This document shows positions 1 to 42,638 of a DNA stretch of 64,000 bases, piece after piece. The stretch is from a virus: positions 1 through 64,000 of the IMG/VR virus record IMGVR_UViG_3300028844_005756. One strand, 5' to 3'. Positions within the stretch are counted from its first letter, which is position 1, and each line of letters starts with the position of its first letter. Under the pieces are notes generated by a model that saw only the letters and a program-made list of their open reading frames with translations, was not told where the DNA came from and did not search any database. Both the position numbers and the translations under genes were made by a program.

Positions 1-30
1 TTTGAGTTGGGTCAATCAAACTATAGAAAT

Positions 31-60
31 AAGTATATCAGACTTGAAAGAAATGTCAAG
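31..60 (-). promoter_or_regulatory. sigma70-like early promoter pointing out of the window
   Basis: Minus strand reads CTTGACAtttctttcaagtcTGaTATACT, the same family as promoters at 21620, 24187, 36656 and 37123. Confidence 0.75.
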
Positions 61-402
61 TTATTTTTTTAATTTTTTATGTAATTTTTGATGTGTAAAC
101 CATGCATCGGCATTAAAACTTTTGTCACAAACATATATATCAAAGTGTGGTTTTCCTCCAACAGTTACACTTGTGTGCTTACATCCCCATTCTTTTATTT
201 GTTTATTTGTCAATTCAGTCCAGTCTATACCACTTCTGGCTCCTCTTGCAGTCCAATAATGTATCTCATGACCTTCATCATATAAAGAATTTAAATACAT
301 AATCCGTTCATATATTGGCTTATGATTCGGATAGTCTTTGGAACCATCTGCCATTTTAACTTCTTCACAAATGGTTCCATCTATGTCTACGTATATAATC
401 AT
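61..402 (-). CDS. small HAD-superfamily phosphatase-like protein
   Basis: N-terminal VDIDGT (DxDGT), WTARG, GKP..D.Y.CDK motifs. Confidence 0.75.
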   Translation of the reverse strand: MIIYVDIDGTICEEVKMADGSKDYPNHKPIYERIMYLNSLYDEGHEIHYWTARGARSGIDWTELTNKQIKEWGCKHTSVTVGGKPHFDIYVCDKSFNADAWFTHQKLHKKLKK

Positions 403-776
403 ACGGCTCTTTCACGATAATTTTTGATTGCGGCTTTAATAGCATCTTCTGCTAAAACAGAACAATGAATTTTAACGGGAGGTAGAGAGAGTTCTTCAAC
501 TATTTCAGTATTTTTTATTTCAAGTGCCTCATCTATTGTTTTTCCTTTTACCCATTCAGTTGCTAAACTGGAACTAGCAATTGCACTTCCACAACCAAAT
601 GTTTTAAATTTAGCGTCAACTATTCTATCGTTTTCTACTTTGATTTGTAGTTTCATTACATCACCACATTCAGGTGCGCCTACTAATCCTGTACCAATAT
701 TTTCATCATCTTTAGAAAAACTTCCTACATTTTTTGGGTCATTATAATGGTCCAAGACTTCTTTGCTGTATGACAT
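399..776 (-). CDS. iscU: Fe-S cluster scaffold IscU
   Basis: YSKEVLDHY, GAPECGDVMKLQI, FKTFGCGSAIASSS, LPPVKIHCSVLAEDA. Start at 776 preferred over the track's 785. Confidence 0.97.
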   Translation of the reverse strand: MSYSKEVLDHYNDPKNVGSFSKDDENIGTGLVGAPECGDVMKLQIKVENDRIVDAKFKTFGCGSAIASSSLATEWVKGKTIDEALEIKNTEIVEELSLPPVKIHCSVLAEDAIKAAIKNYRERAV

Positions 777-777
777 A

Positions 778-1131
778 TTATTCAATTCCTAATTTAAAAT
801 TAGAATTTAACGGTTGAAAAGATTCTCCACAACCACATTGTCCTGAATTAGTTAAAAAAACAAACCCTTGTTCAATTAAATTATCATCCTTATAATCTAT
901 AGTAATAGAACCTATAACGTTTGTCAATAGTTCTTTATCAATGATTATTCTACCACCTTCAAATGTAACATCATTGAGTTTGAGGTCATTAGTTGATTCA
1001 AGTGTCCATCTCCATCCCGAACATCCTCCTGGATTTGCTCCAACTCTTATAAATTTTTCATCTGCTTCATAAAATATATTTTTTGCTTTTTCTGTAATAG
1101 AAATTGTAAAATCTTTATCTCCAATAATCAA
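778..1131 (-). CDS. iscA: IscA/HesB-family A-type Fe-S carrier
   Basis: GGCSG and CGCGESF motifs; TTG start after GAGG. Confidence 0.9.
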   Translation of the reverse strand: MIIGDKDFTISITEKAKNIFYEADEKFIRVGANPGGCSGWRWTLESTNDLKLNDVTFEGGRIIIDKELLTNVIGSITIDYKDDNLIEQGFVFLTNSGQCGCGESFQPLNSNFKLGIE

Positions 1132-1140
1132 TTTTACCTC

Positions 1141-1248
1141 TTAGCGATGATGTAAAACATATCTGACTACATTATATTTTATATTAAAATTATCTGCACT
1201 TTCTTTTTCTTCTTTATATTTTTCAGAATCCAATCCTTCAGTTGTCAT
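1141..1248 (-). CDS. 35-aa hypothetical protein (not in ORF track)
   Basis: ATG preceded by AAGGAGG; MTTEGLDSEKYKEKK...HHR*; fills the gap in the operon. Confidence 0.5.
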   Translation of the reverse strand: MTTEGLDSEKYKEEKESADNFNIKYNVVRYVLHHR

Positions 1249-1275
1249 ACCTCCTTGTTTGATTTATTGTTATCA

Positions 1276-1599
1276 CTAAATCCATAAATTACAATAGTAT
1301 TTACCAAACAACAAAAGTCCATTATCAACTCTTTTTCTCTTTTCTGTGCTTAATAATATAATGTTATCTTCCTTCACTTTTTCAAATGCATAAATCATTT
1401 CATCCAAAACATAGTGCCATCTTTTTTCTAAAAATTCTATATCAGTGTCATTAACTGGAGAATCATCTTCTAATTTTAATTCTTCAGGTACATCATCACT
1501 TGATACAAATGGAACAGAATATACATTATCCTTTCTTAACTTAACAAGTGCTGGATGAATAACCTGAGAAAGTTTATAATCTTCCGCTTTCTTCTGCAT
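1276..1599 (-). CDS. conserved T4-like phage hypothetical protein, possibly N-terminally split
   Basis: DDVPEEL...KRWHYVLDEMIYAFE...RVDNGLLLFGKYY.NLW motif recognisable from myophage proteins. Confidence 0.6.
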   Translation of the reverse strand: MQKKAEDYKLSQVIHPALVKLRKDNVYSVPFVSSDDVPEELKLEDDSPVNDTDIEFLEKRWHYVLDEMIYAFEKVKEDNIILLSTEKRKRVDNGLLLFGKYYCNLWI

Positions 1600-1679
1600 C
1601 TACAAGCCAATCATAAAAAAAATGCAAGTAACTACGATAACCACACAAATAAACTTTCATGATATTTTCCTTTTAATAA

Positions 1680-2621
1680 TCAACTTTCTAATACACCCAA
1701 AACTTCATAATTTAAATTAACAGATTTTAAATTTTTAGGATCAACTACTAAAACCATTCCTAAACCACAATTAAATGTGCTTCTCATTTCATCATTTGTT
1801 AATGATGTTTTTTCTTGTAACCAACTAAACAATTCTTCATGTGCAAAATAAATTTTTGATTCTGATTTCCAGTTTATAGAATGTTTAGATGAAATACTTC
1901 TATTAATATTATTCCAACCACCTCCAGTAATGTGAGCAACTGCTTTAATATCTACTAATTTTTTTCTAAATTCATCTAAATCATTTTTATATATTTTAGT
2001 TGGTTTTAACAAATTATTTAACAGTTCTTCTGTTATTTTAATTTTATAGTCATCTTTTAGTAATTTGTTTATTAAACTAAAACCATTACTATGAAGACCG
2101 GTACTATAAAGTCCAATTAAAATATCATTCTTTTTAATTTTCTTTGTATTTTCATCTAATTTTGTACCTACTCCAAATCCACAAACATCAAAGTTTTTAT
2201 TTGTTTTAAACATTTCTGGTAATTCAGCAGTTTCACCTCCTACTAATTTTACATTTATATTTTTACAAGCACTATCTATACCTGCTATTACTTCCAGATA
2301 AAAAGATTCATTTAACTCACCTGTTGCAAAATAATCCATAAAAAAAAGAGGTTCTGCATTTTCACATAAAATATCATTCATTACCATAGCTACACAATCT
2401 TCTCCAATTGAATTCATTGGACGTTGATAAACTTCTTTAGCATATTTTGCAAGTAATACTTTTGTACCTACCCCATCACAACTCATAACAAGACTACCAT
2501 TTGACCATTGCGGAAGAACACACGTAGCTGAAAATTTACCAATTTGGTCTGAATAAGTTTTTATTTTATCTACAAGATTATTTGCCAAATTTACATCAAC
2601 TCCAGCATCTTTATAATTCAT
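1680..2621 (-). CDS. purM: AIR synthetase PurM
   Basis: YKDAGVD, DGVGTK, GGETAELP, GLHSNGFSL, AHITGGG, TFNCGLGM. Confidence 0.97.
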   Translation of the reverse strand: MNYKDAGVDVNLANNLVDKIKTYSDQIGKFSATCVLPQWSNGSLVMSCDGVGTKVLLAKYAKEVYQRPMNSIGEDCVAMVMNDILCENAEPLFFMDYFATGELNESFYLEVIAGIDSACKNINVKLVGGETAELPEMFKTNKNFDVCGFGVGTKLDENTKKIKKNDILIGLYSTGLHSNGFSLINKLLKDDYKIKITEELLNNLLKPTKIYKNDLDEFRKKLVDIKAVAHITGGGWNNINRSISSKHSINWKSESKIYFAHEELFSWLQEKTSLTNDEMRSTFNCGLGMVLVVDPKNLKSVNLNYEVLGVLES

Positions 2622-2623
2622 AA

Positions 2624-3241
2624 TTACCTTAATAAGAATTTATCTATTATTATATAACCATCTTTACTTTTGTGATGACTTTCAAAAGCACGTTCTGGAT
2701 GAGGCATTAATCCAAGAACATTACCTTTATTGTTGTATATGCCAGCTATAGCATGTAGACTTCCGTTTGGATTGAGTGGTTTGTAGCGCCAAGCTACTTC
2801 AAAATTAAAATGATCATTTTTATTACAATAAAACTGTCCGTCTCCATGTGCAATTGGTACAGTAATGTTTTTTAGATGATTATCATATAATTCAACTTCT
2901 TTGCATATGAATTTTAAAGTATTATTTTTTCTCAGTGTGCCGGTTAATATCTTTCTCTCACATAGAATCTGAAATCCATTACATATTCCTAAAACTTTTC
3001 TACCATCATTGGCATATTTTTCAATATCATTCATTGCTGGACTTAAACTTGCAAGAATACCGGCACGTAAATAATCTCCATAACTAAATCCACCTGGTAA
3101 AACATACATATCTAATTTTGGAACAGAACTTTCTTTGTGCCAAATTGTAGATACTTGGAATTCCTTATAAGTCTTTAAAAATCTAATAGTTTCTTGCTCA
3201 CAATTGGAACCAGGAAATATAACAACTCCAACCTTATACAT
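2624..3241 (-). CDS. purQ: FGAM synthase glutaminase subunit PurQ
   Basis: FPGSNC, PGGFSYGDYLRAG, GICNGFQIL, GLMPHPER. Confidence 0.97.
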   Translation of the reverse strand: MYKVGVVIFPGSNCEQETIRFLKTYKEFQVSTIWHKESSVPKLDMYVLPGGFSYGDYLRAGILASLSPAMNDIEKYANDGRKVLGICNGFQILCERKILTGTLRKNNTLKFICKEVELYDNHLKNITVPIAHGDGQFYCNKNDHFNFEVAWRYKPLNPNGSLHAIAGIYNNKGNVLGLMPHPERAFESHHKSKDGYIIIDKFLLR

Positions 3242-4833
3242 TAATCCTCCATTAAACCAATTGCTCCAAATACTGGAGTAGGTAATATATTTTGTCCTGA
3301 TGTTTCATTATAGAAACTCACATTGCCGCTGACAACAGGAAAGTCCAGTTTCTCACAGATTCTAGCCATTGCATCTATAGTTTCTTTAAACTCAAACATA
3401 ATCTCAGGGTTCTCAGGATTGCCGAAATTCAAACAATTTGTTAATGCTATAGGTTTAGCACCAATAGAAACTAATTTATCATAAACTGAAACTATACAAT
3501 TCTCTGCTCCTTGGTCTGGATTAATATAACTCTGATATGGAAAGCTATCAGTATAAATTGCAATTTGTTTATCTTTACCTCTGGCATCTTTTCTAGGTAT
3601 TCTGACAATAGCTACATCATCTCTAATACCCTTTATTGTATTACCTTGAACTTCACTATCATATTGAGAATGAATTAATTCTGAACTATAAAAATAATTC
3701 TCCTGTGCTTCTTCTCTTTCAAATATTGGTTTCCAGGGTCTTTCCATTTCTGGATATTCTAAAGCACTAAGCGGAAAATTACAACAAACATTACCATCCT
3801 TATACACTGTAAAATTTCCATCTTCTGTTGTATGACCAATTTCTACACAATCCAAATCCCATTTATCAAAAATAGCTTTAGCTTCTTCTATTCCCCGATC
3901 GTGCAAAACAAACAACATTCTTTCCTGAGATTCACTGAGTAAAATCTCCCAAGCTTCCATACCTGTTTCTCTTAACGGAACTTTATCTAGATTTAATTCT
4001 ATACCACATGTTCCTTTAAATAATGCAGAGCCTCCTTTTATACCTATTTCAGTAGAAGAACTGGTAAGTCCTGCTGCTCCCATATCTTGTGCGGCAATCA
4101 CATGTTCTGTTTTTGCTAGTTCAAGACAGGCTTCTATTAACAACTTTTCTAGATATGGATCTCCCACTTGTACAGTAGGGCGTAAATCTACACCATCTGT
4201 GAAACTATCACTTGCCATTACTGCTCCGCCAATACCATCTCTTCCTGTCTTAGCACCGACATATAATAATCTTCCCGGATTTTTGGCTACACTTTTTATA
4301 ATACGTTCTCTAGTATGACCAATTGCCATTGCATTTACTAGTGGATTTTTTTCATATCTTTCATTAAACTTTATTTTACTACTGACAGTGGGTACACCTA
4401 CACAATTTCCATAGTGTGTTAATCCTGCAATCACTCCATCCATAACACGTTTACTATCATCAGAAAATGCAGGGTCTCCGAAAAATAAATTATTGGTAAG
4501 TGCAATAGGTCTAAATCCCATTGTAAAGATATCACGTAGAATACCACCAACTCCGGTTGCTGCACCTTGAAATGGTTCAATATAACTTGGGTGATTATGT
4601 GACTCCATTTTAAATGCGACTTTATCAGTGCCACCAATACTAATTACTCCAGCGTTTTCACCAGGACTTGAAAAAACATATTTGTTATCTGTGTATAATC
4701 TACGTAAATGAGGCTTGCTTGTTTTATAACTGCAATGTTCACTCCACATTGCATCAAAAACGGATTCTTCTGTATGATTCGGTTTTCTATTTAATCTTTT
4801 TTCAATTTCAATTAGTTCATCTTTAGTCAACAT
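3241..4833 (-). CDS. purL: FGAM synthase small-type PurL, C-terminally shortened
   Basis: MWSEHCSYK, KMESHNHPS, GAATGVGGILRD, QDMGAAGL, SESQERM, VSGNVSFYNET, PTP. Confidence 0.96.
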   Translation of the reverse strand: MLTKDELIEIEKRLNRKPNHTEESVFDAMWSEHCSYKTSKPHLRRLYTDNKYVFSSPGENAGVISIGGTDKVAFKMESHNHPSYIEPFQGAATGVGGILRDIFTMGFRPIALTNNLFFGDPAFSDDSKRVMDGVIAGLTHYGNCVGVPTVSSKIKFNERYEKNPLVNAMAIGHTRERIIKSVAKNPGRLLYVGAKTGRDGIGGAVMASDSFTDGVDLRPTVQVGDPYLEKLLIEACLELAKTEHVIAAQDMGAAGLTSSSTEIGIKGGSALFKGTCGIELNLDKVPLRETGMEAWEILLSESQERMLFVLHDRGIEEAKAIFDKWDLDCVEIGHTTEDGNFTVYKDGNVCCNFPLSALEYPEMERPWKPIFEREEAQENYFYSSELIHSQYDSEVQGNTIKGIRDDVAIVRIPRKDARGKDKQIAIYTDSFPYQSYINPDQGAENCIVSVYDKLVSIGAKPIALTNCLNFGNPENPEIMFEFKETIDAMARICEKLDFPVVSGNVSFYNETSGQNILPTPVFGAIGLMED

Positions 4834-5044
4834 ATTTTACTTCATAATCATAGAGTAATTCGTTTACAAAAAGTTTTTTAGCAATATCATCAACGTCAGC
4901 ATCATTCTCTATTTCTAGATAATAAATCTCCCCTACGGAAATGTGAGTGATTTTTAAATCTTTTCCTACGGAGTTCAGTATTGTTTCCCCTTCTACGTCT
5001 TTGATTCCACTCCGAAGCTTTGTTTGAATTGCCACTTTTTTCAT
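4823..5044 (-). CDS. purS: FGAM synthase subunit PurS
   Basis: 73 aa directly upstream of purL; GIKDVEGETI and KLFVNELLYDY match PurS D.xG / L.N motifs. Confidence 0.85.
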   Translation of the reverse strand: MKKVAIQTKLRSGIKDVEGETILNSVGKDLKITHISVGEIYYLEIENDADVDDIAKKLFVNELLYDYEVKYVD

Positions 5045-6269
5045 TTTTGCCTATGTCCTTTCTGTAGATCATATTATCAAAATTGATTTTATTCACTGCA
5101 TTATACACGTTTTCTCTAGCTTTGTCAAGTGTTTTTTCAAATGTTGTTACATTTAATACTCTTCCACCATTTGTTTTGTATTTTTGAGATTGTTCATCAA
5201 ATACGGTTCCCGCGTGAAATACTTGAACACTATTATCAATTTTATCTAAACCTTCAATGCAATAACCATGTTCATATTTTTGAGGATATCCTTGTGAACA
5301 TAAAGAAACTGTAATAGCATATCCTTCATGAAATTTTGGGTCGGGTAAATTATCTAATGTTCCTTCAGAAATTGCCTTTAAATACGGAGCTAAGTCATCT
5401 TTCATAAGCATCATTAGTACTTGACATTCAGGGTCTCCAAATCTAACATTATATTCTAAGACAAAAGGACCATTTTCATTTATCATTAATCCTATATATA
5501 ATATTCCTTTATATCTACAACCTTCTAAACGCATTCCATTTAATGTAGGTTTTATAATAGTATCTTCTATTCTTTTTTTCATTTTATCAGTGACAAGTGG
5601 ATGTGGAGCAATAGCACCCATTCCGCCTGTATTTGGTCCTTCATCACCATCATTTATTCTTTTATAATCTTTACAAAATGGTAATATTTTATAGCTATCT
5701 CCGTCTGACATGACAAAACAACTTGCTTCAAAACCAAATACATAGTCTTCAAATAATACTTTATTAGAAGAAGATTTAAAAATATTATTAATAAAGATAG
5801 GTGGAATATTCCTCCAAGCTTCTTCTTGAGTTCTTGCAATTACTACTCCCTTTCCTCCACAAAGTCCATCTTCTTTTATTACTACTGGATAATATGGATT
5901 TTCTAAATCTAGTGGTTTAATACTTATAATTTTGTGGGAACGATTATTACGCATGATATCAAGGTCAAGCAACGCTTGATTCATACCATCAGGATTTCTA
6001 GTATACGTCATCCATCTTGCAGTGGGTATATCCCATCGTTGCATAAACTGTTTGGCCCACAATTTACTAGATTCTAATCTAGCCGCAAGCATACTAGGCG
6101 CAACTATTCTTATGAAACCATGTCTATCGGCAATACCATCTGCAATAGGTCCTTCAGGACCTACGACAGTTAATTCTTGCAAATCATTTACAATTTCATG
6201 ACAATGTTTTGTTAATTTCCATTTTATTGCAGATTCTCTGCCACCATTTCCTACAATTTTTACTCTCAC
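4902..6269 (-). CDS. purD: phosphoribosylamine-glycine ligase PurD
   Basis: GNGGRE, VVGPE, LESSK, GKGV, DYKR..DGDEGPNTGGMGA, EYNVRFGDPE, FHAGT, GGRVL, YRKDIG. Confidence 0.96.
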   Translation of the reverse strand: MRVKIVGNGGRESAIKWKLTKHCHEIVNDLQELTVVGPEGPIADGIADRHGFIRIVAPSMLAARLESSKLWAKQFMQRWDIPTARWMTYTRNPDGMNQALLDLDIMRNNRSHKIISIKPLDLENPYYPVVIKEDGLCGGKGVVIARTQEEAWRNIPPIFINNIFKSSSNKVLFEDYVFGFEASCFVMSDGDSYKILPFCKDYKRINDGDEGPNTGGMGAIAPHPLVTDKMKKRIEDTIIKPTLNGMRLEGCRYKGILYIGLMINENGPFVLEYNVRFGDPECQVLMMLMKDDLAPYLKAISEGTLDNLPDPKFHEGYAITVSLCSQGYPQKYEHGYCIEGLDKIDNSVQVFHAGTVFDEQSQKYKTNGGRVLNVTTFEKTLDKARENVYNAVNKINFDNMIYRKDIGKNEKSGNSNKASEWNQRRRRGNNTELRRKRFKNHSHFRRGDLLSRNRE

Positions 6270-6289
6270 ATTACAATCTCATATGTATA

Positions 6290-6823
6290 TTAAAATATAT
6301 TATTATCAACTACAGTAACATTTCCATCTTCATAATAAGTATTAAATTCAGAATTAATAATGTCTATATCTTTTTCTTGCTTTACTCTTTCGGAAATTAA
6401 TTTTTGATGAAGTGTAGTATTGTTTAGTGCTAATATTTGAAGAGATAAAAGAGCCGCATTTTTAGAATTGTTAATCGCTACTGTTGCGACAGGCACACCT
6501 CTTGGCATTTGCACAATAGATAATAAACTATCCAATCCTTCAGCAGTAGAGGTTCTTACTGGAACACCGATTACAGGAATTGTAGTTAATGCAGCAAACA
6601 TTCCTGGTAAATGTGCTGCTCCACCAGCACCGGCAATAATTACTTTAAATCCATTTTGAATAGCATTTTTAGCATATGTAGCCATTTTCAAAGGTGTTCT
6701 ATGTGCGGATAGAATTTTTTTTTCGTGGGGAATATTATATTCTTGGAGTGTGTCACATGCGGGTTTCATGATATCCCAATCACTTTTACTTCCCATAACA
6801 ACACTAACAATCGGATTTAACAT
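6290..6823 (-). CDS. purE: N5-CAIR mutase PurE
   Basis: [40 protein letters not shown]; ATG at 6823 after AAGGA. Confidence 0.97.
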
Positions 6824-6957
6824 GTCATTTCCTTTCAATTAAAAATCTTCAACTATAAAAGAAGATTAACATTTATAAAAAATTACAATCTCATAAAAAA
6901 TACATTGATATTTTTTTATATAAATTAAGCGGCTAATAAATTATAAGAAGTCAAGTA

Positions 6958-7170
6958 TTATTTTTTATACTCTGGCAAATCTTTATGTTTAGTAGATGCA
7001 AATTTCTTTGCATCTTTCATAGACATACCTTTAGCTATCTTTTTTACTTCATCAGAAGCATCTTTCATTCGGCCTTTTTTATAGGCGTATACCATACCCA
7101 TTAGTCTTTGTTGACTTTTAGATAAGGATTTCTCTAGGATAACTTCCCAGAATTCACTGTATCGTTTCAT
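6958..7170 (-). CDS. small basic putative internal head protein (DUF3008-like)
   Basis: MKRYSEF...ILE leader; SKSQQRLMGMV...FASTKHKDLP module. Confidence 0.6.
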   Translation of the reverse strand: MKRYSEFWEVILEKSLSKSQQRLMGMVYAYKKGRMKDASDEVKKIAKGMSMKDAKKFASTKHKDLPEYKK

Positions 7171-7331
7171 TTATCTTTTTTATCATCATCTTTTTTATCT
7201 TCTTCTTTGTCATCTGCAGCTTTCTCCATAGATTCTTCTTTATCACCATCTTTATCTATATCAAGAAAATCTGGTTTCTTTTTCTTGGCGGCTTCTGTGA
7301 TTTGGTCTAAAAATAGTTTAAATGACTTCAT
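7167..7331 (-). CDS. 54-aa D/K-rich putative internal head protein (not in ORF track)
   Basis: MKSFKLFLDQITEAAKKKKPDFLDIDKDGDKEESMEKAADDKEEDKKDDDKKDK*; ATGA overlap with the next gene. Confidence 0.7.
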   Translation of the reverse strand: MKSFKLFLDQITEAAKKKKPDFLDIDKDGDKEESMEKAADDKEEDKKDDDKKDK

Positions 7332-7382
7332 GTTCTGTTAGATTAAAGTTAAAATATAATTTATATATATTTAGCAGGTTTA

Positions 7383-7832
7383 TTAGTTGACCTGTATAGG
7401 AATTAATTTTAGTCCAATGATATCAGCTAGTCCAGCTGTATCTTCATTACTAAGTGCAATTGCATTTCTATTTCCCAAAACATAACGATATGAATCCATA
7501 GTTGTTGCTTTAACTTCAACTTGTTCTAGTTGTCCTCTGGCAATCTTTTCTTCTATTTTTCTTTTAAGAAGATGTGGAGGTAAAACGGATATTTCACGTA
7601 CTACCGAATCTAATAAAGTTGAATCTTTACCATATAAAACAATGACTAAAGTTGTTTGAACACCTTGAATAGTATCTGTTCTACCTTCCAAAAAATACAT
7701 AAGTTCTTCACCCTCAACTTGTGTTAGTTTATTCTGAGGATGAACGGCTATAGAATTTTGAGCTTGTATAGTTGTAGTTGTTAATAAAAAAGCTACTGCT
7801 AAATTAAAAAACGTAAGTAATAGAGACCGCAT
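7383..7832 (-). CDS. exported small periplasmic-binding-protein-like (short PstS-like) protein
   Basis: Signal peptide (..IQA|Q); IAVHPQN..., YVLGNRNAIAL resemble the ~140-aa porin-associated PBP family. Confidence 0.55.
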   Translation of the reverse strand: MRSLLLTFFNLAVAFLLTTTTIQAQNSIAVHPQNKLTQVEGEELMYFLEGRTDTIQGVQTTLVIVLYGKDSTLLDSVVREISVLPPHLLKRKIEEKIARGQLEQVEVKATTMDSYRYVLGNRNAIALSNEDTAGLADIIGLKLIPIQVN

Positions 7833-8952
7833 AGATATCCCAGTATTCCTTTAGATTATTTGTAATTGCTCTTCTGTTTTCTTTCCACGTTAATTGATGT
7901 GTGCCGTTAGAATTACCATACTGACCTTTAAGAATCAAATTATCAAGATAGTCATAAGAAACACCAGCCCCCCTATGAGTTTCTTCTTCGGTATCTTCTA
8001 TGTTATCAAATCCGTAATTTGCCCATAATTTATATTTATAAGTACGATATTGAACCATTGTATTCCAAAACTGTTGTTTGGATGTAGGTAATCTAAATCC
8101 GTAAAACTGTTGCATTAAATCATTTGCAGTTCCATCAGCTTGTCTTAATCTATCTATTTTTTCTACAGTAAAAATATAATTATCCCAATAGTATTCTGCA
8201 GCATTGTATCTGTAAATATAATTTAAATCAACTTCTTTATATGTTTTTTGACTATCTGGTATAAATGGATTTAAACTATAGAATTCTGGAGTTACAAAGA
8301 AGTCAGCAGTGATACTACTTTCTATTTGACGATATCTAAAACTACGATAATTTGCTTCTAATTGATATCCATAATTAACATTCTGTTGTACTGGTTCCAT
8401 ACCAACAAAATCTTGTACGTAATCTTCTTTCGGTCTTAAATCAGTATTTTTACCAGTTAAATATTCTAACTCTAAACAGAGTCCTCCAATGTGATATCTA
8501 CCAAATAAAGAATGTCCATCAATTGATGTTAAAAGTTTTCTTGAATTTTGCCATACCATATTTGTTGGATAATATTGTAGAACAAATGGTCTTTCTGGTG
8601 CAAACTTTGTATCACTCCAAAATCCAAAAGGAACACTCAATCTACCAACTCGGTATCCACCACCAAAATCTCTATTCTTAAAATCTGCTTGTACAAATGA
8701 ATAGTTAAAGTCTAAGTATCTTTCATCATCATATGCAGTTTCAAAAGCAAACAATGAATTCCAATGTAAGTTTTTTGTTATACCTACATTTAGTTGTAAA
8801 CCAGCTTCTATATTTGTATATTCTTCTGGTACTTTGTTTTCTGATGTTTCTACATAGCTAGTAGTTAACCATGAACGTGTATTTAAACGCAATTCAGCGT
8901 ACAATAAACTGTACACTAAACAAAAGATTAGTGTGAGTATAATTTTTTTCAT
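7804..8952 (-). CDS. outer-membrane beta-barrel (porin-like) protein
   Basis: Signal peptide, alternating aromatic beta-strands, RVGRLSVPFG motif, C-terminal Bam signal YAVSITYVF. Confidence 0.75.
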   Translation of the reverse strand: MKKIILTLIFCLVYSLLYAELRLNTRSWLTTSYVETSENKVPEEYTNIEAGLQLNVGITKNLHWNSLFAFETAYDDERYLDFNYSFVQADFKNRDFGGGYRVGRLSVPFGFWSDTKFAPERPFVLQYYPTNMVWQNSRKLLTSIDGHSLFGRYHIGGLCLELEYLTGKNTDLRPKEDYVQDFVGMEPVQQNVNYGYQLEANYRSFRYRQIESSITADFFVTPEFYSLNPFIPDSQKTYKEVDLNYIYRYNAAEYYWDNYIFTVEKIDRLRQADGTANDLMQQFYGFRLPTSKQQFWNTMVQYRTYKYKLWANYGFDNIEDTEEETHRGAGVSYDYLDNLILKGQYGNSNGTHQLTWKENRRAITNNLKEYWDIYAVSITYVF

Positions 8953-9593
8953 TAGGGATTTTTAGGGAGAATTTTAGATAGTTTGGAATATGCGTCAGAA
9001 ATGCTAAAAGTATTTGTTTCTATACTTTTTTCTGCGGTATTTAATCTACTGGAAACTTTCATGATCTTGTCTTCTATGACAATCATAGATTCTTTCATAG
9101 AATCCACATTGCCTTCCATGATAAACAATTGTTTTTCAACACCTCTATTGTTAACCAACATTTCAGACACTTGGGTTTTCAATAATGGCACGGAATCCAG
9201 TTTAGTTTGCATATCATATAACGAATTCCAAACAGAACCTAAACCCCCGGCAAAAACAACTCCAAGTATCGCACCTACATATTTTGAAACATTTGATTTT
9301 TTAACCGTATTACCATCCAACTCTTCTATCTTATCATGAATATGATCTAACAATTTTTCATGATTATTCTTCTCTCTATCTATAATTGACCCGACTTTAG
9401 GAAGAATAACTTTGTAAAAAAAAGTTTCAAACTCACGATTTAAATGTTCATCGTCAAATACTCTTTTACTAATATCAGTTACTTCTCTTTCAAAAGACCT
9501 TAACTTGATATCTAGTTCGTTTTGTTTTTCAAGTATCTTAACTTCATGTTTAGATAACCACTCATAAAATTGTTCTCTTGATAATTCGGACAT
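8952..9593 (-). CDS. single-pass membrane coiled-coil protein
   Basis: Hydrophobic YVGAILGVVFAGGLGSVW flanked by heptad-rich segments; TAATG coupling to the porin. Confidence 0.6.
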   Translation of the reverse strand: MSELSREQFYEWLSKHEVKILEKQNELDIKLRSFEREVTDISKRVFDDEHLNREFETFFYKVILPKVGSIIDREKNNHEKLLDHIHDKIEELDGNTVKKSNVSKYVGAILGVVFAGGLGSVWNSLYDMQTKLDSVPLLKTQVSEMLVNNRGVEKQLFIMEGNVDSMKESMIVIEDKIMKVSSRLNTAEKSIETNTFSISDAYSKLSKILPKNP

Positions 9594-9632
9594 TTTAAAA
9601 TGGTTAAAAAAGTTAGTTAATAGAGTGTATAT

Positions 9633-9785
9633 CTATTTATCTTTTAAAACTTTTTTAGCATAATCCGTTAAAATCTCAACAATTAAATCATTTAATTTTA
9701 TATCTCTTTTGTGTGCTTCTAACGCTAATTCTATGAATGTATCGGTAGGTATATCAATAGTCACTAGTTCATCCTGTTCTTCCAT
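9633..9785 (-). CDS. 50-aa ribbon-helix-helix-like protein (not in ORF track)
   Basis: MEEQDELVTIDIPTDTFIELALEAHKRDIKLNDLIVEILTDYAKKVLKDK*. Confidence 0.6.
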   Translation of the reverse strand: MEEQDELVTIDIPTDTFIELALEAHKRDIKLNDLIVEILTDYAKKVLKDK

Positions 9786-9786
9786 A

Positions 9787-10107
9787 TTAACATTCCTTTA
9801 ATTTCTGTACAATATATTTCATTAATGTTGTTTCTTTCGCATGAGCCCGCATTGATAATTCTAATACTAATTTTTCTGGTAGGTCTAATATAATCATACA
9901 AGTTTCTTCTTCTTGCGTATATACTCCGCCTTCTTTATCAATCTTTTCAAAAATATTAACATTAGGATTATTTTGTAATTCAGAAATAATATTTGCATTA
10001 ATATAATCCGCTGCAGAATCAACATATGTTTCTCCGCCTGAATTAATTTCTTGTAATAAATTTTTAATATCTCTAAGTTCTTCTAACGCAGACATACTTG
10101 TTCCCAT
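9787..10107 (-). CDS. hypothetical protein with C-terminal RHH-like module
   Basis: C-terminal LDLPEKLVLELSMRAHAKETTL parallels 9633..9785. Confidence 0.55.
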   Translation of the reverse strand: MGTSMSALEELRDIKNLLQEINSGGETYVDSAADYINANIISELQNNPNVNIFEKIDKEGGVYTQEEETCMIILDLPEKLVLELSMRAHAKETTLMKYIVQKLKEC

Positions 10108-10113
10108 ATATTG

Positions 10114-10446
10114 TTAAGTCTCCATCATTTCCATATATATATCCAATACATCTTTATGTATCGGAAATGAATTTCCATTTTCTTCCACTATTACATATAC
10201 ACTGTCATTTTCATCATCAATATCTTCTTTATCTATATCTTCATAGTCCTCTTCATATAAATGAAATAAATCATTTAATTTATTTTCCATAGAATCTATA
10301 TCATTATTACTTAAAGTAAGTAGCATTTCTAATTCAGAACCATCAGAATAAACTATTTTTTCTTTTATTTTTACTCCATCATATTCACCAGTCCATTTAA
10401 TTGGTGCTACCGATTTAGAAAATTGAAAAATTTTAGAATTATTCAT
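10114..10446 (-). CDS. acidic hypothetical protein
   Basis: ORF tiled in operon. Confidence 0.55.
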   Translation of the reverse strand: MNNSKIFQFSKSVAPIKWTGEYDGVKIKEKIVYSDGSELEMLLTLSNNDIDSMENKLNDLFHLYEEDYEDIDKEDIDDENDSVYVIVEENGNSFPIHKDVLDIYMEMMET

Positions 10447-10690
10447 ATTTTTTTTTCTTGTGTTGGTTAAAAGTGTTCATTACAGAGAAACTATTTAAAA
10501 TTCCAAAATCATCTACATTTAATAATTTTAAAGTGTTTTTGCTAATATTTTTTTTTACAATTTCTTCGGGAAAAATAAAACATTCATTATTTTTTGAAAT
10601 TATTTGTACTTCATTTTGTTCTAAATTAGAAGAGTAACGAATACTAACATTGACTTTTATATCGGAATCGTGTATAATAAATGGTTTCAT
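10439..10690 (-). CDS. hypothetical protein
   Basis: First ORF after divergent promoters. Confidence 0.5.
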   Translation of the reverse strand: MKPFIIHDSDIKVNVSIRYSSNLEQNEVQIISKNNECFIFPEEIVKKNISKNTLKLLNVDDFGILNSFSVMNTFNQHKKKKYE

Positions 10691-10733
10691 ATTTCTTTAT
10701 TTTATTTTAGTAAGCTAATTTAAGTTTACATTC

Positions 10734-10770
10734 TATTTATAGAATACCACAAAAGTTTGAAAAAATCAAG
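10734..10770 (-). promoter_or_regulatory. tandem sigma70-like promoter and T4 late promoter
   Basis: TTGATT...TGgTATTCT, then TATAAATA at 10734-10741, both on the minus strand. Confidence 0.5.
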
Positions 10771-10827
10771 TATTTTTTCAAACATAAATATAAGTAGTTC
10801 AAAATATTAAATAAATTAGGAGAATTC

Positions 10828-11349
10828 ATGTCAGCGCCTTCATTACTAAGTATTAACAATGGGGATTTAGATAATAATTTTTCTCAAGTAAATCGTTTTG
10901 AGATGGTATTTTCTATTCTCCCAAATGTTACATATACGTTAAACGAGGTGAATTTACCTGGATTATCAATAAGCAATCCAATAGTTCCAACTATACTAAA
11001 TCCAACTTATCATGGAGCCGATTCAGCTACTTTTGATCAATTAAATATTAATTTTTTAGTGCAGGAAGATTTTGCTAATTATTTTGAAATACATGATTGG
11101 ATAAGAGCAATTTCATTTCCTGATAGTTTTAATGATAGAAAAGATTTAGAAAGATTTGAAGGTGTTGATAGTTATGGATTTTTGACTATTAATGATAGTT
11201 ATAACCTACCTTTATATAGATTTCATTTCTATAATGTAATACCCAATACATTAACTGGTTTGAATTTGATGGCTGCGGATGCTAATGAACTACTTGCTTC
11301 AGCTTCTTTTAATTATACAATTTACAGAAGGGAAGTTGTCAAAAAATAA
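10828..11349 (+). CDS. tail completion / sheath stabiliser gp3-like
   Basis: LPNVTY..VNLPGLS, FDQLNINFLVQEDFANYFEIHDWI; gp3-uvsY-uvsW synteny. Confidence 0.85.
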   Translation: MSAPSLLSINNGDLDNNFSQVNRFEMVFSILPNVTYTLNEVNLPGLSISNPIVPTILNPTYHGADSATFDQLNINFLVQEDFANYFEIHDWIRAISFPDSFNDRKDLERFEGVDSYGFLTINDSYNLPLYRFHFYNVIPNTLTGLNLMAADANELLASASFNYTIYRREVVKK

Positions 11350-11368
11350 TTTTGTTTTTGGAGTTAAT

Positions 11369-11830
11369 ATGATTACCCATGAATTGATTTCTTCCGAATG
11401 GAACAACGACTATCCAAAATATGAAGATATTACAAAGAATTTATCTAATTTAGATGAGATTACATTAAGCGTTGAAAATAAGTACAACAAATACTCTGAT
11501 TTCTATTACGAAGCTTGTAAAGAACTTTATGGTTTACAAAAAAAACAAGAACAAATGGAAAAAGTATTAAAATTATATTATTCAAAAAAACCTATGTCTG
11601 ATGATGATATTGAGAAATATCAATTAGAAGCGTTACAAATTTCGTATACTAAACCTGAAATTGATATGATGGTACGTTCTGATAGTAGAATTCTTGATAT
11701 TAAAACTAAAATAAAAATGAAAGAATTAACTATTGAAAAAATTAGAACATGTATGAAATTCATTACAGATTGGAAATGGAATTTTAGTAAATTTATAGAT
11801 TTGTATAAAATTAAAAATGGAATAATTTGA
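11369..11830 (+). CDS. uvsY: recombination mediator UvsY
   Basis: Position between gp3 and uvsW; KY...LYYS...D...W pattern; ATG after GGAG. Confidence 0.75.
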   Translation: MITHELISSEWNNDYPKYEDITKNLSNLDEITLSVENKYNKYSDFYYEACKELYGLQKKQEQMEKVLKLYYSKKPMSDDDIEKYQLEALQISYTKPEIDMMVRSDSRILDIKTKIKMKELTIEKIRTCMKFITDWKWNFSKFIDLYKIKNGII

Positions 11831-11837
11831 GAGTATA

Positions 11838-13286
11838 ATGGAAAAAATAAATGTAAATTTTTTAAATCATAGTGATTGTAGATTAATTTGTTCTCCAAGC
11901 GTAATGAATGAATTGAGTGATGTTTTCTCATATTTTATACCAAGTGCAAGATATCATCCTAAATTTAAAGCTAAAAAATGGGATGGTAAAATACGCTTAG
12001 TAAATATGCGAACAAAAACTATTCCTTATGGGTTAATTCACCGTTTAAAAAATTATTGTAAGATTAAAGAATATGAATTTGAATCTGAATTTTCTTTAGA
12101 ACCTGTAGATTTTAGTGAAGAAAATGCTATAGAATTTATTGAAAATTTACAAATGCCATTTGAAGTTAGAGACTATCAGATTCAGGCATTTGTTCATGCT
12201 GTTCAGAAACAACGGTCCATTTTAGTCTCACCTACTGGTAGTGGTAAGTCTGCTATTATATATTTGCTCATGCGTTTATTCTACGAGTTAGACCGTAGGG
12301 TTTTGATGATTGTACCTACTGTTAATCTTGTAACTCAGATGAGATCTGATTTTGAGGAATATGCAATTAATATAGATAAATTATCTGTTCAAGAGGTATA
12401 TGCAGGTAGGACTAAAGAAGTTTCTTCACCAATCATGATTTCAACTTGGCAAAGTCTGCAGAATCTTGAGCGAGATTGGTTTGACCAATTTGACACCGTT
12501 GTTATTGATGAAACTCATTTAGCTACTGGAAATACACTTCAGAAAATTCTAAACTACTGTAATCATGCAGATTTCCGAGTGGGACTTACCGGAACTTTGA
12601 CTGGAGAAAAGATTCATGAGATGTTACTTATTGGTGCAATTGGTGAACCAAAGAAGATTATAACCACCAGTGAGTTGATTGATAATGAAATGTTAAGTGA
12701 TTTAAAAATCAAATGTTTGATATTAAATCATAAAAATTCTCCACCAAAAATGAACTATCAAGAAGAGATTGCCTACTTGATCTCTCACCAGAAAAGAAAT
12801 GATTTTATTATTAATTTAGCAAAATCTTTGAAAGGCAACACTCTGATTTTGTTTAATTATGTTGAAAATCATGGAGTTATTTTGTATGAGCAAATCACAG
12901 AAGAGATTGAAGATAAAAATATATTTTTCATGAGCGGTGAAACAAAGGCAGAATTACGTGAGAACATTCGCCAACACGTTAGAAACAACCATTCCGATAA
13001 TATCATTTTAGCAAGTAGCGGTGTATTTTCAACAGGAGTGAATATACCGGCATTACATAATGTAATATTTTCCTCACCAACAAAATCTAAAATTAGAGTG
13101 CTACAGTCTGTTGGTAGAATTTTGCGAAAACATGATTCTAAAAATGTTGCGACCGTCTATGACATAGCGGACAAATTATATACAACGAAGAAAAATTATG
13201 TTTTTACTCACTTTGAAGAAAGATACAAGTATTACATTGAAGAAGATTTTGATGTTAAGTACTATGAATTTAATTTAAAGACTTGA
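11838..13286 (+). CDS. uvsW: SF2 helicase UvsW
   Basis: WDGKIRL, RDYQ, SPTGSGKS, DETH, GLTGT, LQSVGRILR. Confidence 0.95.
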   Translation: MEKINVNFLNHSDCRLICSPSVMNELSDVFSYFIPSARYHPKFKAKKWDGKIRLVNMRTKTIPYGLIHRLKNYCKIKEYEFESEFSLEPVDFSEENAIEFIENLQMPFEVRDYQIQAFVHAVQKQRSILVSPTGSGKSAIIYLLMRLFYELDRRVLMIVPTVNLVTQMRSDFEEYAINIDKLSVQEVYAGRTKEVSSPIMISTWQSLQNLERDWFDQFDTVVIDETHLATGNTLQKILNYCNHADFRVGLTGTLTGEKIHEMLLIGAIGEPKKIITTSELIDNEMLSDLKIKCLILNHKNSPPKMNYQEEIAYLISHQKRNDFIINLAKSLKGNTLILFNYVENHGVILYEQITEEIEDKNIFFMSGETKAELRENIRQHVRNNHSDNIILASSGVFSTGVNIPALHNVIFSSPTKSKIRVLQSVGRILRKHDSKNVATVYDIADKLYTTKKNYVFTHFEERYKYYIEEDFDVKYYEFNLKT

Positions 13287-41927: not shown

Positions 41928-42638
41928 ATGACTCTTTATATTGCAGCACCTTTTGGAAATTATATTAAAACAGCAAATATTAGAAGTGTGGTAGGTTCTT
42001 TTACTGTAGAAAAAAGAACTGGATTATTAAAGCAGATAGCCACTACGCTAAGATACCATGATGGTGTATGGTATAATGCAATAGGATTAAGAAATCCTGG
42101 CATAGAATATGGGTTGAGAAGATATAATGAGTCAACAGGAGATATATTATCTGTAGCCGCTATCAAATCCGGAGATTGGGAAATCTTAAACAATATTATA
42201 CCTTTTAATACAGATATTGAATTAAATTTAAGTTGTCCTAATATAGAACATTTTGATGATTATAATCAAGGCATTGATAAGTTTTTAAATGGAGATAGAA
42301 AGGTAATTGCTAAACTATCACCTTTAACAACAAAAGAAACTATTGTAAGTTTAATTAATCAAGGATTTGATAGTTTTCATTGTTGTAATACATTACCAAC
42401 AGAAAAAGGCGGTATGAGTGGAAAAGGCCTTTATGTTCATATAGAAAGATTAATAAGGATCATAAAGTACTTTAAAAAAGATGCGGATATAATAGCGGGA
42501 GGAGGTATTGAAAACATAGAAGATATAAGAAAATATAATAAATTAGGAGCAACCTCATTTTCACTCGGTACTGTATGTTTTAATTTGTTTAAACTATTTA
42601 ATGTGATAAAAGAATATAAAAAAAGTAATCTTGATTAA
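41928..42638 (+). CDS. pyrD: dihydroorotate dehydrogenase-like FMN enzyme
   Basis: N.IGL.NPG, ELNLSCPN, AKLSP, NT, GGMSG, IIAGGGI, GA. Confidence 0.8.
   Translation: MTLYIAAPFGNYIKTANIRSVVGSFTVEKRTGLLKQIATTLRYHDGVWYNAIGLRNPGIEYGLRRYNESTGDILSVAAIKSGDWEILNNIIPFNTDIELNLSCPNIEHFDDYNQGIDKFLNGDRKVIAKLSPLTTKETIVSLINQGFDSFHCCNTLPTEKGGMSGKGLYVHIERLIRIIKYFKKDADIIAGGGIENIEDIRKYNKLGATSFSLGTVCFNLFKLFNVIKEYKKSNLD

Follow-up and report, generated by a model that had tools for sequence, protein, structure and literature searches.

Why should a bacteriophage carry six genes of de novo purine synthesis (purE, purD, purS, purL, purQ and purM) packed on one strand, and why should genes for iron-sulfur (Fe-S) cluster assembly follow them so closely? 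The question is raised by a block at positions 399-6823 of a 64,000 nt stretch of viral DNA (hereafter the window), which begins at position 1 of an 85,833-bp IMG/VR virus record (IMGVR_UViG_3300028844_005756, labelled G000; CheckV completeness 34%). An earlier note, made from the sequence alone, described the block as a phage purine operon co-oriented with iscA and iscU, and proposed that the phage supplies mid-pathway enzymes and could boost host PurF, an Fe-S enzyme in its Bacillus-type form, or other Fe-S enzymes through its own cluster assembly. The evidence set out below makes it likely that an uncultured T4-like phage, cosmopolitan in the sea and with a genome estimated at roughly 250 kb, truly carries the block as an auxiliary-metabolism island, which raises or sustains purines in infection, with the isc genes as a separate module. 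Comparisons were made with a 146.5-kb syntenic relative (G001), with further related phage contigs (G002, G003 and G004), and with related loci (L005-L008, L011 and L013).

The block and its phage setting

Searches with hidden Markov models (HMMs) gave the following features, listed in minus-strand order (ORF, open reading frame; HAD, haloacid dehalogenase):

6290-6823, minus strand: purE, class I N5-carboxyaminoimidazole ribonucleotide (N5-CAIR) mutase, 177 aa from the ATG at 6823; TIGR01162, 208.9 bits (cut-off 149.6)
4902-6269, minus strand: purD, glycinamide ribonucleotide (GAR) synthetase, GTG start; TIGR00877, 385.7 bits (cut-off 288)
4823-5044, minus strand: purS, 73 aa; Pfam PurS, 34.5 bits (cut-off 22.2)
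3241-4833, minus strand: purL, short form, 530 aa; NF002290, 691 bits (cut-off 648)
2624-3241, minus strand: purQ, glutaminase subunit, 205 aa; NF002957, 237.7 bits (cut-off 212)
1680-2621, minus strand: purM, aminoimidazole ribonucleotide (AIR) synthetase, 313 aa; TIGR00878, 264.4 bits (cut-off 236.35)
1276-1660, minus strand: gene without an assigned function, here in a broken form (window ORF 1276-1599, 107 aa); match to phrog_11543
778-1131, minus strand: divergent A-type Fe-S carrier (IscA/SufA-like), 117 aa, TTG start; TIGR00049, 54.7 bits (cut-off 58.8)
399-785, minus strand: iscU, Fe-S scaffold, ATG at 776; TIGR01999, 216.7 bits (cut-off 192.4)
61-402, minus strand: small HAD-type phosphatase with a DIDGT motif; phrog_1238, E = 3e-23

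These searches confirmed the packing of purE-D-S-L-Q-M on one strand followed by iscA and iscU, and the full order is purE-purD-purS-purL-purQ-purM, the gene without an assigned function, a 35-codon ORF, the A-type carrier, iscU and the HAD phosphatase. All six pur genes and iscU score above the curated cut-offs. Every gene from 10690 down to 61 lies on the minus strand, and the junctions between block genes are overlaps or gaps of 1-20 nt: purD and purS overlap by 143 nt, purS and purL by 11 nt, purL and purQ by 1 nt, and iscU and its downstream neighbour by 4 nt, with a 2 nt gap between purQ and purM. The purE ORF is open from a TTG at 6838, beyond the ATG at 6823, and an AAGGA Shine-Dalgarno sequence lies upstream of this ATG. 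The GC content of the block (29-33%) equals that of the remaining window, in agreement with its description as AT-rich. The genes purF, purN, purK and purC, reported as missing from the window, have no match in the whole 85.8-kb record either, and a check of the remainder of this 34% complete record for further pur genes found neither purB nor purH.

Between purM and the carrier gene the earlier note had seen only small ORFs. Two are indeed present, of 107 aa and 35 codons, but the first of them (1276-1599) is a deletion form of a 170-aa gene. Contigs of three public runs (DNA, viral metagenome and RNA) are longer by 128 letters at position 1582; in them the ORF starts at the ATG at 1660, stops at 1276 and encodes 170 aa, and the G001 ortholog of this phrog_11543 gene also has 170 aa (L013:6096-6608). 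It follows that the 107-aa ORF of the window is a variant of a conserved gene, due to a deletion or to the assembly.

The record holds T4-type genes for the gp19 tail tube, UvsY, UvsW, gp47, gp46, gp44, gp45 and a helicase, together with the marine helper genes CobS, PhoH, SpeD and peptide deformylase. Among cultured phages, S-CRM01, the Melnitz methylophages and HTVC008M come closest by gp44, sharing only 44-45% identity. A 33,863-bp Logan contig from one marine run (X1) spans positions 1-12000 of the window and extends 7.3 kb past the window start; where the two overlap, they differ only in the 128 extra letters at 1582. The 6.4-kb block is present in 17 DNA runs from 11 marine studies (2014-2025) with 98-99% of sampled words, and one of these runs is a viral metagenome. 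In G001 the same order runs from uvsW through the block; T4-type genes precede purE there, and ORFs of phage type come after iscU. Phage genes flank the block on both sides on one contig, and do so in independent assemblies, as expected of a phage auxiliary gene set. Read mapping had been suggested as a way to expose a chimeric host insert; no such insert appeared in the Logan-contig comparison, the 17 runs or the synteny with G001. Because the Logan contig bridges the block, 17 runs contain it, and G001 is collinear between phage genes, a chimeric insert is excluded for practical purposes.

The phage-type early promoter said to bound the block is not supported. In 11 kb there are 68 promoter-like sites of the sigma-70 type, against 65.6 expected from shuffled sequence, which lends no support to the candidate before purE; a TTGACT at 6955 has no -10 element at a distance of 16-18 nt. 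Copies of the T4 late-promoter word TATAAATA number 8 in the window, fewer than the 16.6 expected, and none lies upstream of purE, where the letters are TATAAATG. One copy of TATAAATA is found at 10734-10741 (minus strand), in a divergent gap, where it heads the run of minus-strand genes that ends in the pur and isc genes. Contigs 99-100% identical to parts of iscU/carrier, purM, purL and purD/purS occur in two marine metatranscriptome runs of one study, which is compatible with expression of the block.

A short form of PurL

The PurL of the window has subdomains A1, B1 and A2, and B2 is absent. NF002290 was matched over positions 1-544 of 723, and there is a single AIRS_C domain in place of the usual two, so the four subdomains of a small-type formylglycinamidine ribonucleotide (FGAM) synthetase are not all represented. 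The protein ends at a ...PTPVFGAIGL motif, and every short PurL in two alignments (12 and 46 sequences) likewise ends at PTPV.G..GL, the A2/B2 boundary. Catalytic motifs are invariant. The small-type FGAM synthetase PurS2-PurL-PurQ of T. maritima (3D54) and T. thermophilus (3VIU) is likewise encoded by three separate genes in the order purS-purL-purQ, and in the window each of these genes matches its own family. The phage PurL aligns to residues 13-548 of 725 in 3VIU and 9-501 of 603 in 2HS0, and PurQ retains the Cys-His-Glu triad, its motifs GICNGFQ and MPHPER being intact. Compared with 3D54 and 3VIU, every PurL of the phage clade lacks B2 (about 100-180 residues) as well as about 16 residues before A2.

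Among 5.8 billion protein clusters searched, more than 100 hold a short PurL of 511-538 aa that is 55-91% identical to the window protein, and the next matches were full-length alphaproteobacterial PurLs (726-779 aa) at no more than 52% identity. Two pattern scans of 185,579 cellular species genomes found no member of the short clade, the closest PurL being 51-53% identical. Among the clustered sequences, one short PurL carries a Marine Group I thaumarchaeote label, probably a binning error. A PurL phylogeny, which the earlier note had called for, was inferred with FastTree from 67 rows; it placed 41 short PurLs in one clade apart from cellular PurL, with a long stem and an SH-like support of 100, and with alphaproteobacterial PurL as sister group (support 89). 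The phage PurL would accordingly be a miniaturised three-subdomain form that arose once, and the pur enzymes appear to be old phage lineages rather than fresh host copies.

How widely this form is spread among phages was also considered. Six related IMG/VR loci carry a short PurL, and a scan of viral contigs with the short-PurL alignment returned the same six loci and none further. A tblastn search of 50,697 phage records with the short PurL gave no match above 45% identity and none in cyanomyophage or pelagiphage records, several of the matches being unannotated fragments. Metagenome contigs scanned with the same alignment yielded mostly cellular PurL at no more than 50% identity and no new phage loci, since the patterns chosen were universal motifs and cellular PurL swamped the result. 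The short PurL occurs also on contigs of 170-303 kb; where its genomic context was seen, in the window and the six related loci, the contigs are of phage type.

A split PurL, with B2 encoded elsewhere, was rejected from five phage contigs (G000 and its relatives). No separate B2 ORF was found in them, and each of the five has exactly two AIRS_C matches, belonging to PurL B1 and to PurM, so B2 is not encoded separately. B2 belongs to the non-catalytic pseudo-half of PurL, in which the nucleotide site is structural, and this would make its loss plausible. The AlphaFold (AF2) model of the short PurL is confident (pLDDT 87.6, pTM 0.89). Its superposition on 3VIU, the PurL of T. thermophilus, gives TMq 0.88 and TMt 0.67, and that on 3D54_A, the PurL of T. 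maritima PurLQS, gives TMq 0.83 and TMt 0.76.

Sequence identities within the block are mosaic. The window PurL is 85% identical to that of G002 and 62-65% to that of G001, whereas PurQ is 84% identical to that of G001 and 57-58% to that of G002, a pattern that points to recombination within the pur block.

The Fe-S genes and the proposed link to PurF

IscU has the motifs expected of a scaffold protein, namely ECGD, GCGS, HCS and LPPVK, which include three cysteines, Asp39 and His105; LPPVK is the HscA docking site in the ISC system. The A-type carrier is more divergent. It falls below the TIGR00049 cut-off (54.7 against 58.8 bits) and PF01521 has no match in the record, but three cysteines are kept at the expected places (GGCSG and CGCG), an AAGAGG Shine-Dalgarno sequence precedes its TTG start, and it is 41% identical to an A-type carrier in G003. 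G001 has IscU and no A-type carrier. No cysteine desulfurase (IscS) above the PF00266 cut-off was found in the five phage contigs, in which hscB, hscA and fdx were not searched by name. The best cellular IscU matches are SAR324 genomes (82-85% identity) and PurL is sister to alphaproteobacterial forms, so that the signals of the host diverge and no host is named.

Would these genes serve the purine pathway? The earlier note linked them to PurF, and part of that idea finds support: the PurF proteins of G002 and G003 align with B. subtilis PurF (1AO0/1GPH) with all four cysteines of the [4Fe-4S] cluster kept, and are therefore of the Bacillus type. If the phage IscU and carrier mainly loaded the [4Fe-4S] cluster of a host or phage PurF, isc and pur would form one functional unit that opens the first step of the pathway. 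The isc genes directly follow purM, apart from the two small ORFs, in G000, and also follow it in G001, and G000, G001, G002 and G003 all carry IscU and/or an A-type carrier. On the other hand, neither G000 (85.8 kb) nor G001 (146.5 kb) yielded a purF, and in G002 and G003 a distance of 17-25 kb separates the isc genes from the pur genes. The four contigs stand for no more than two or three independent lineages, and a desulfurase was not found. IscU is also common on viral contigs that lack pur genes. Relatives occur on at least 564 IMG/VR contigs; of the best 80 IscU-bearing viral contigs (938 kb), 18 have the carrier and not one has purE, D, S, L, Q or M within 10 kb. The search of viral data for pur and isc synteny suggested by the earlier note therefore found the adjacency in G000 and G001, but confined to this sub-lineage.

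Nishimura et al. (2017, PMC5332604) described IscU and A-type carriers as general Fe-S helper genes of T4-like environmental viral genomes from the sea, and published marine T4-like genomes with either gene have other Fe-S clients. The present phage resembles those in having the same ISC-type IscU and A-type carrier, no desulfurase, a T4-like genome and a relationship to HTVC008M, and differs in that two isc genes directly follow the pur block and that the best cellular IscU is from SAR324 (82-85%), not SAR86. Taking both sides together, a dedicated service to PurF is rather doubtful. The same holds for its fuller version, in which a largely self-contained pathway would combine miniaturised PurL and PurD with a phage [4Fe-4S] PurF in the unsequenced part of the genome, the isc genes being kept chiefly to mature that PurF as one unit with the pur genes; we regard it as unlikely. 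The adjacency of pur and isc is probably better explained by co-location of helper genes in a variable region than by coupling. The Fe-S-type PurF in the phage lineage nevertheless gives the coupling idea a concrete, testable form.

Breadth of the purine genes and their probable activity and role

The preferred reading, a purine island with a separate isc module, predicts enzymes that still work. PurE has both class I loops (SAHRTP and a GGAAHLPG-type loop), and all 34 of its matches in the PDB are class I N5-CAIR mutases; being class I, it needs PurK. No PurK was found in the five phage contigs, where TIGR01161 gave only weak ATP-grasp matches on PurD. In PurD, the TIGR00877 match covers profile positions 66-423, and the A (ATP-grasp) and C domains are complete, but GARS_N was matched only at positions 64-100 and about 35 residues are deleted after the GNGGRE start. 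The PurD of G003 is shortened in the same way in its N domain. At its other end, the purD frame is open for 47 codons into purS and would encode a basic, Arg/Lys-rich tail of about 45 aa. In the three other loci with purS after purD, the frame likewise stays open, over 34-45 codons, against only 13-14 codons in L005 and L006, where purS does not follow. The G003 PurD ends without a tail. purS is kept in all six related loci.

Pairwise dN/dS values among G000, G001 and G002 are 0.05-0.43 for all genes, indicating purifying selection, and stand at 0.07-0.29 for PurL and 0.14-0.15 for PurD, although the ratios are rough because dS is near saturation. The pur genes have no internal stops and retain their catalytic motifs. 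These results bear on the idea that the block is a decaying relic, in which a truncated PurL and a trimmed PurD are inactive and purines are no longer made. The lack of B2, the shortened N domain of PurD and the adjoining 170-aa gene, broken in this record, would all fit such decay. But the same truncation point recurs in more than 100 diverged clusters of a single clade, invariant motifs and open frames are kept, the PurL model folds with high confidence and selection is purifying for both proteins, and decay is quite improbable. The proposal that the phage supplies mid-pathway enzymes is, by contrast, consistent with the intact genes and motifs, the dN/dS range, the retention of the genes in related phages and the marine RNA contigs.

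Related phages carry a broader pathway, with 9-11 pur genes per contig. In G002 the order is purF-purB-purE-purD-purS-(ORF)-purL-purQ, then purC and purM; G003 and G004 have purC, purF, purD, purM, purE, guaC, purS, purL, purQ, purB, purN and purH; and in G001 purN is found elsewhere on the contig. The window itself has one further purine gene, which sits between the T4 recombination genes gp47 and gp46 and has an ortholog adjoining purE in L005-L007:

15444-16511, plus strand: guaC, GMP (guanosine monophosphate) reductase; NF003470, 517.5 bits (cut-off 397)

Could the block serve some other end, for example by providing intermediates derived from AIR or carboxyaminoimidazole ribonucleotide (CAIR) for a cofactor, a signal or a modified nucleotide? 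The steps encoded in the window contig do end at CAIR, and a HAD phosphatase and the conserved 170-aa protein travel with the pur genes. However, related contigs extend the module with purC, purB and purH toward inosine monophosphate (IMP), GuaC feeds IMP too, and no branch-pathway enzyme was found in the parts scanned, which leaves this use of the block very improbable. Least credible of all is that the block is host DNA misassembled onto a phage, or recent host-derived cargo: it does lie at the very end of a fragmentary record and pur and isc genes are ultimately cellular, but against this stand the independently built 33.9-kb contig that bridges both sides, the 17 runs of 11 studies, the same gene order between phage genes in G001, a GC content equal to that of the phage, and the distance to the best cellular PurL, with the short clade not found in the scans of cellular genomes.

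Several other genes accompany the purine genes. The DIDGT HAD phosphatase (phrog_1238) lies alongside them in all four large contigs (window 61-402, G001 5164, G002 102385 and G003 74406), and could act as a nucleotidase or as a phosphatase on a pathway intermediate. A short TIM-barrel protein of 236-240 aa resembling dihydroorotate dehydrogenase is encoded in the window (41928-42638), in L013 (11972-12694) and in G002 (near 98932); its gene immediately precedes purE in G001 and, in G002, lies between purC and purM. An orotidine monophosphate decarboxylase is also present in G002 (L008:13305-13910), and pyrimidine genes thus appear to travel with purine genes. Elsewhere, G003, a contig of a related jumbo phage, has an isocitrate lyase gene (Pfam ICL, E = 1.5e-100) between purC and purF (L011:16521-17753), and in G002 a 280-aa protein resembling a class II tRNA-synthetase core (PF00152) is encoded directly upstream of purF (L008:3571-4413).

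Some points weigh against a working purine island with a separate isc module. The record is 34% complete with the block at its very end, and the pathway is incomplete in the available sequence, with PurK in none of the related contigs. With one entire subdomain absent from PurL and the N domain of PurD incomplete, the function of both is read from conservation only. The RNA evidence consists of assembled contigs from a single study, in which DNA carry-over is possible. Finally, all four large pur contigs (G000-G003) carry an Fe-S assembly gene, leaving room for a functional link.

If the island works as proposed, the six genes would cover steps 2, 4, 5 and 6b of de novo purine synthesis, with PurD, an FGAM synthetase of PurS, PurL and PurQ, PurM, and the class I PurE. 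These enzymes would most likely raise or sustain the supply of purine nucleotides for phage DNA replication. GuaC would turn G nucleotides into IMP and shift pools toward A, which would suit a genome of 29% GC. For PurF, PurN/T, PurK, PurC, PurB and PurH the phage would have to rely on the host or on the two thirds of its own genome that are unsequenced. IscU and the A-type carrier would form a second helper module, as scaffold and carrier for Fe-S proteins, with the cysteine desulfurase and HscA/B drawn from the host; their place next to the pur genes probably reflects the accumulation of helper genes in a variable region, and not a single operon-level machine made by the two modules.

Purine genes are well known from marine phages. 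purH, purL, purM and purN were reported in marine cyanomyophages and pelagiphages (PMC5083919), purN, purM, purC and purS in marine phages (PMC9983427), purM in podovirus pelagiphages (PMC9599517), and purD/GART was called a first report in marine viruses in 2024 (PMC11360552). The pur genes of marine cyanomyophages and pelagiphages are likewise host-derived, are thought to sustain nucleotide supply, and are likewise accompanied by CobS, PhoH, SpeD and peptide deformylase. The cited phages have one to four pur families, however, and no multi-gene cluster was described in them, whereas six contiguous, co-oriented genes are found here, including PurE, PurD, PurQ and the short PurL. A search of the open-access literature turned up no paper that describes either a short phage PurL or several pur genes in one contiguous phage block. 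The B. subtilis operon purEKBCSQLFMNHD is likewise co-oriented and translationally coupled, with split purS, purQ and purL, but the phage block differs from it in its order (E-D-S-L-Q-M), in the absence of purK, C, B, F, N and H from the contig, in its miniaturised enzymes and in its phage setting.

Purine helper genes of phages are usually described singly, and here a run of consecutive steps is found in one block, with relatives holding up to 11 pur genes. How little of FGAM synthetase suffices is put to a natural test by the short PurL, which, if active, would define a minimal form of this enzyme. Consecutive purine steps in one block suggest that purine supply, beyond phosphate or energy, may limit large AT-rich phages in ocean bacteria.

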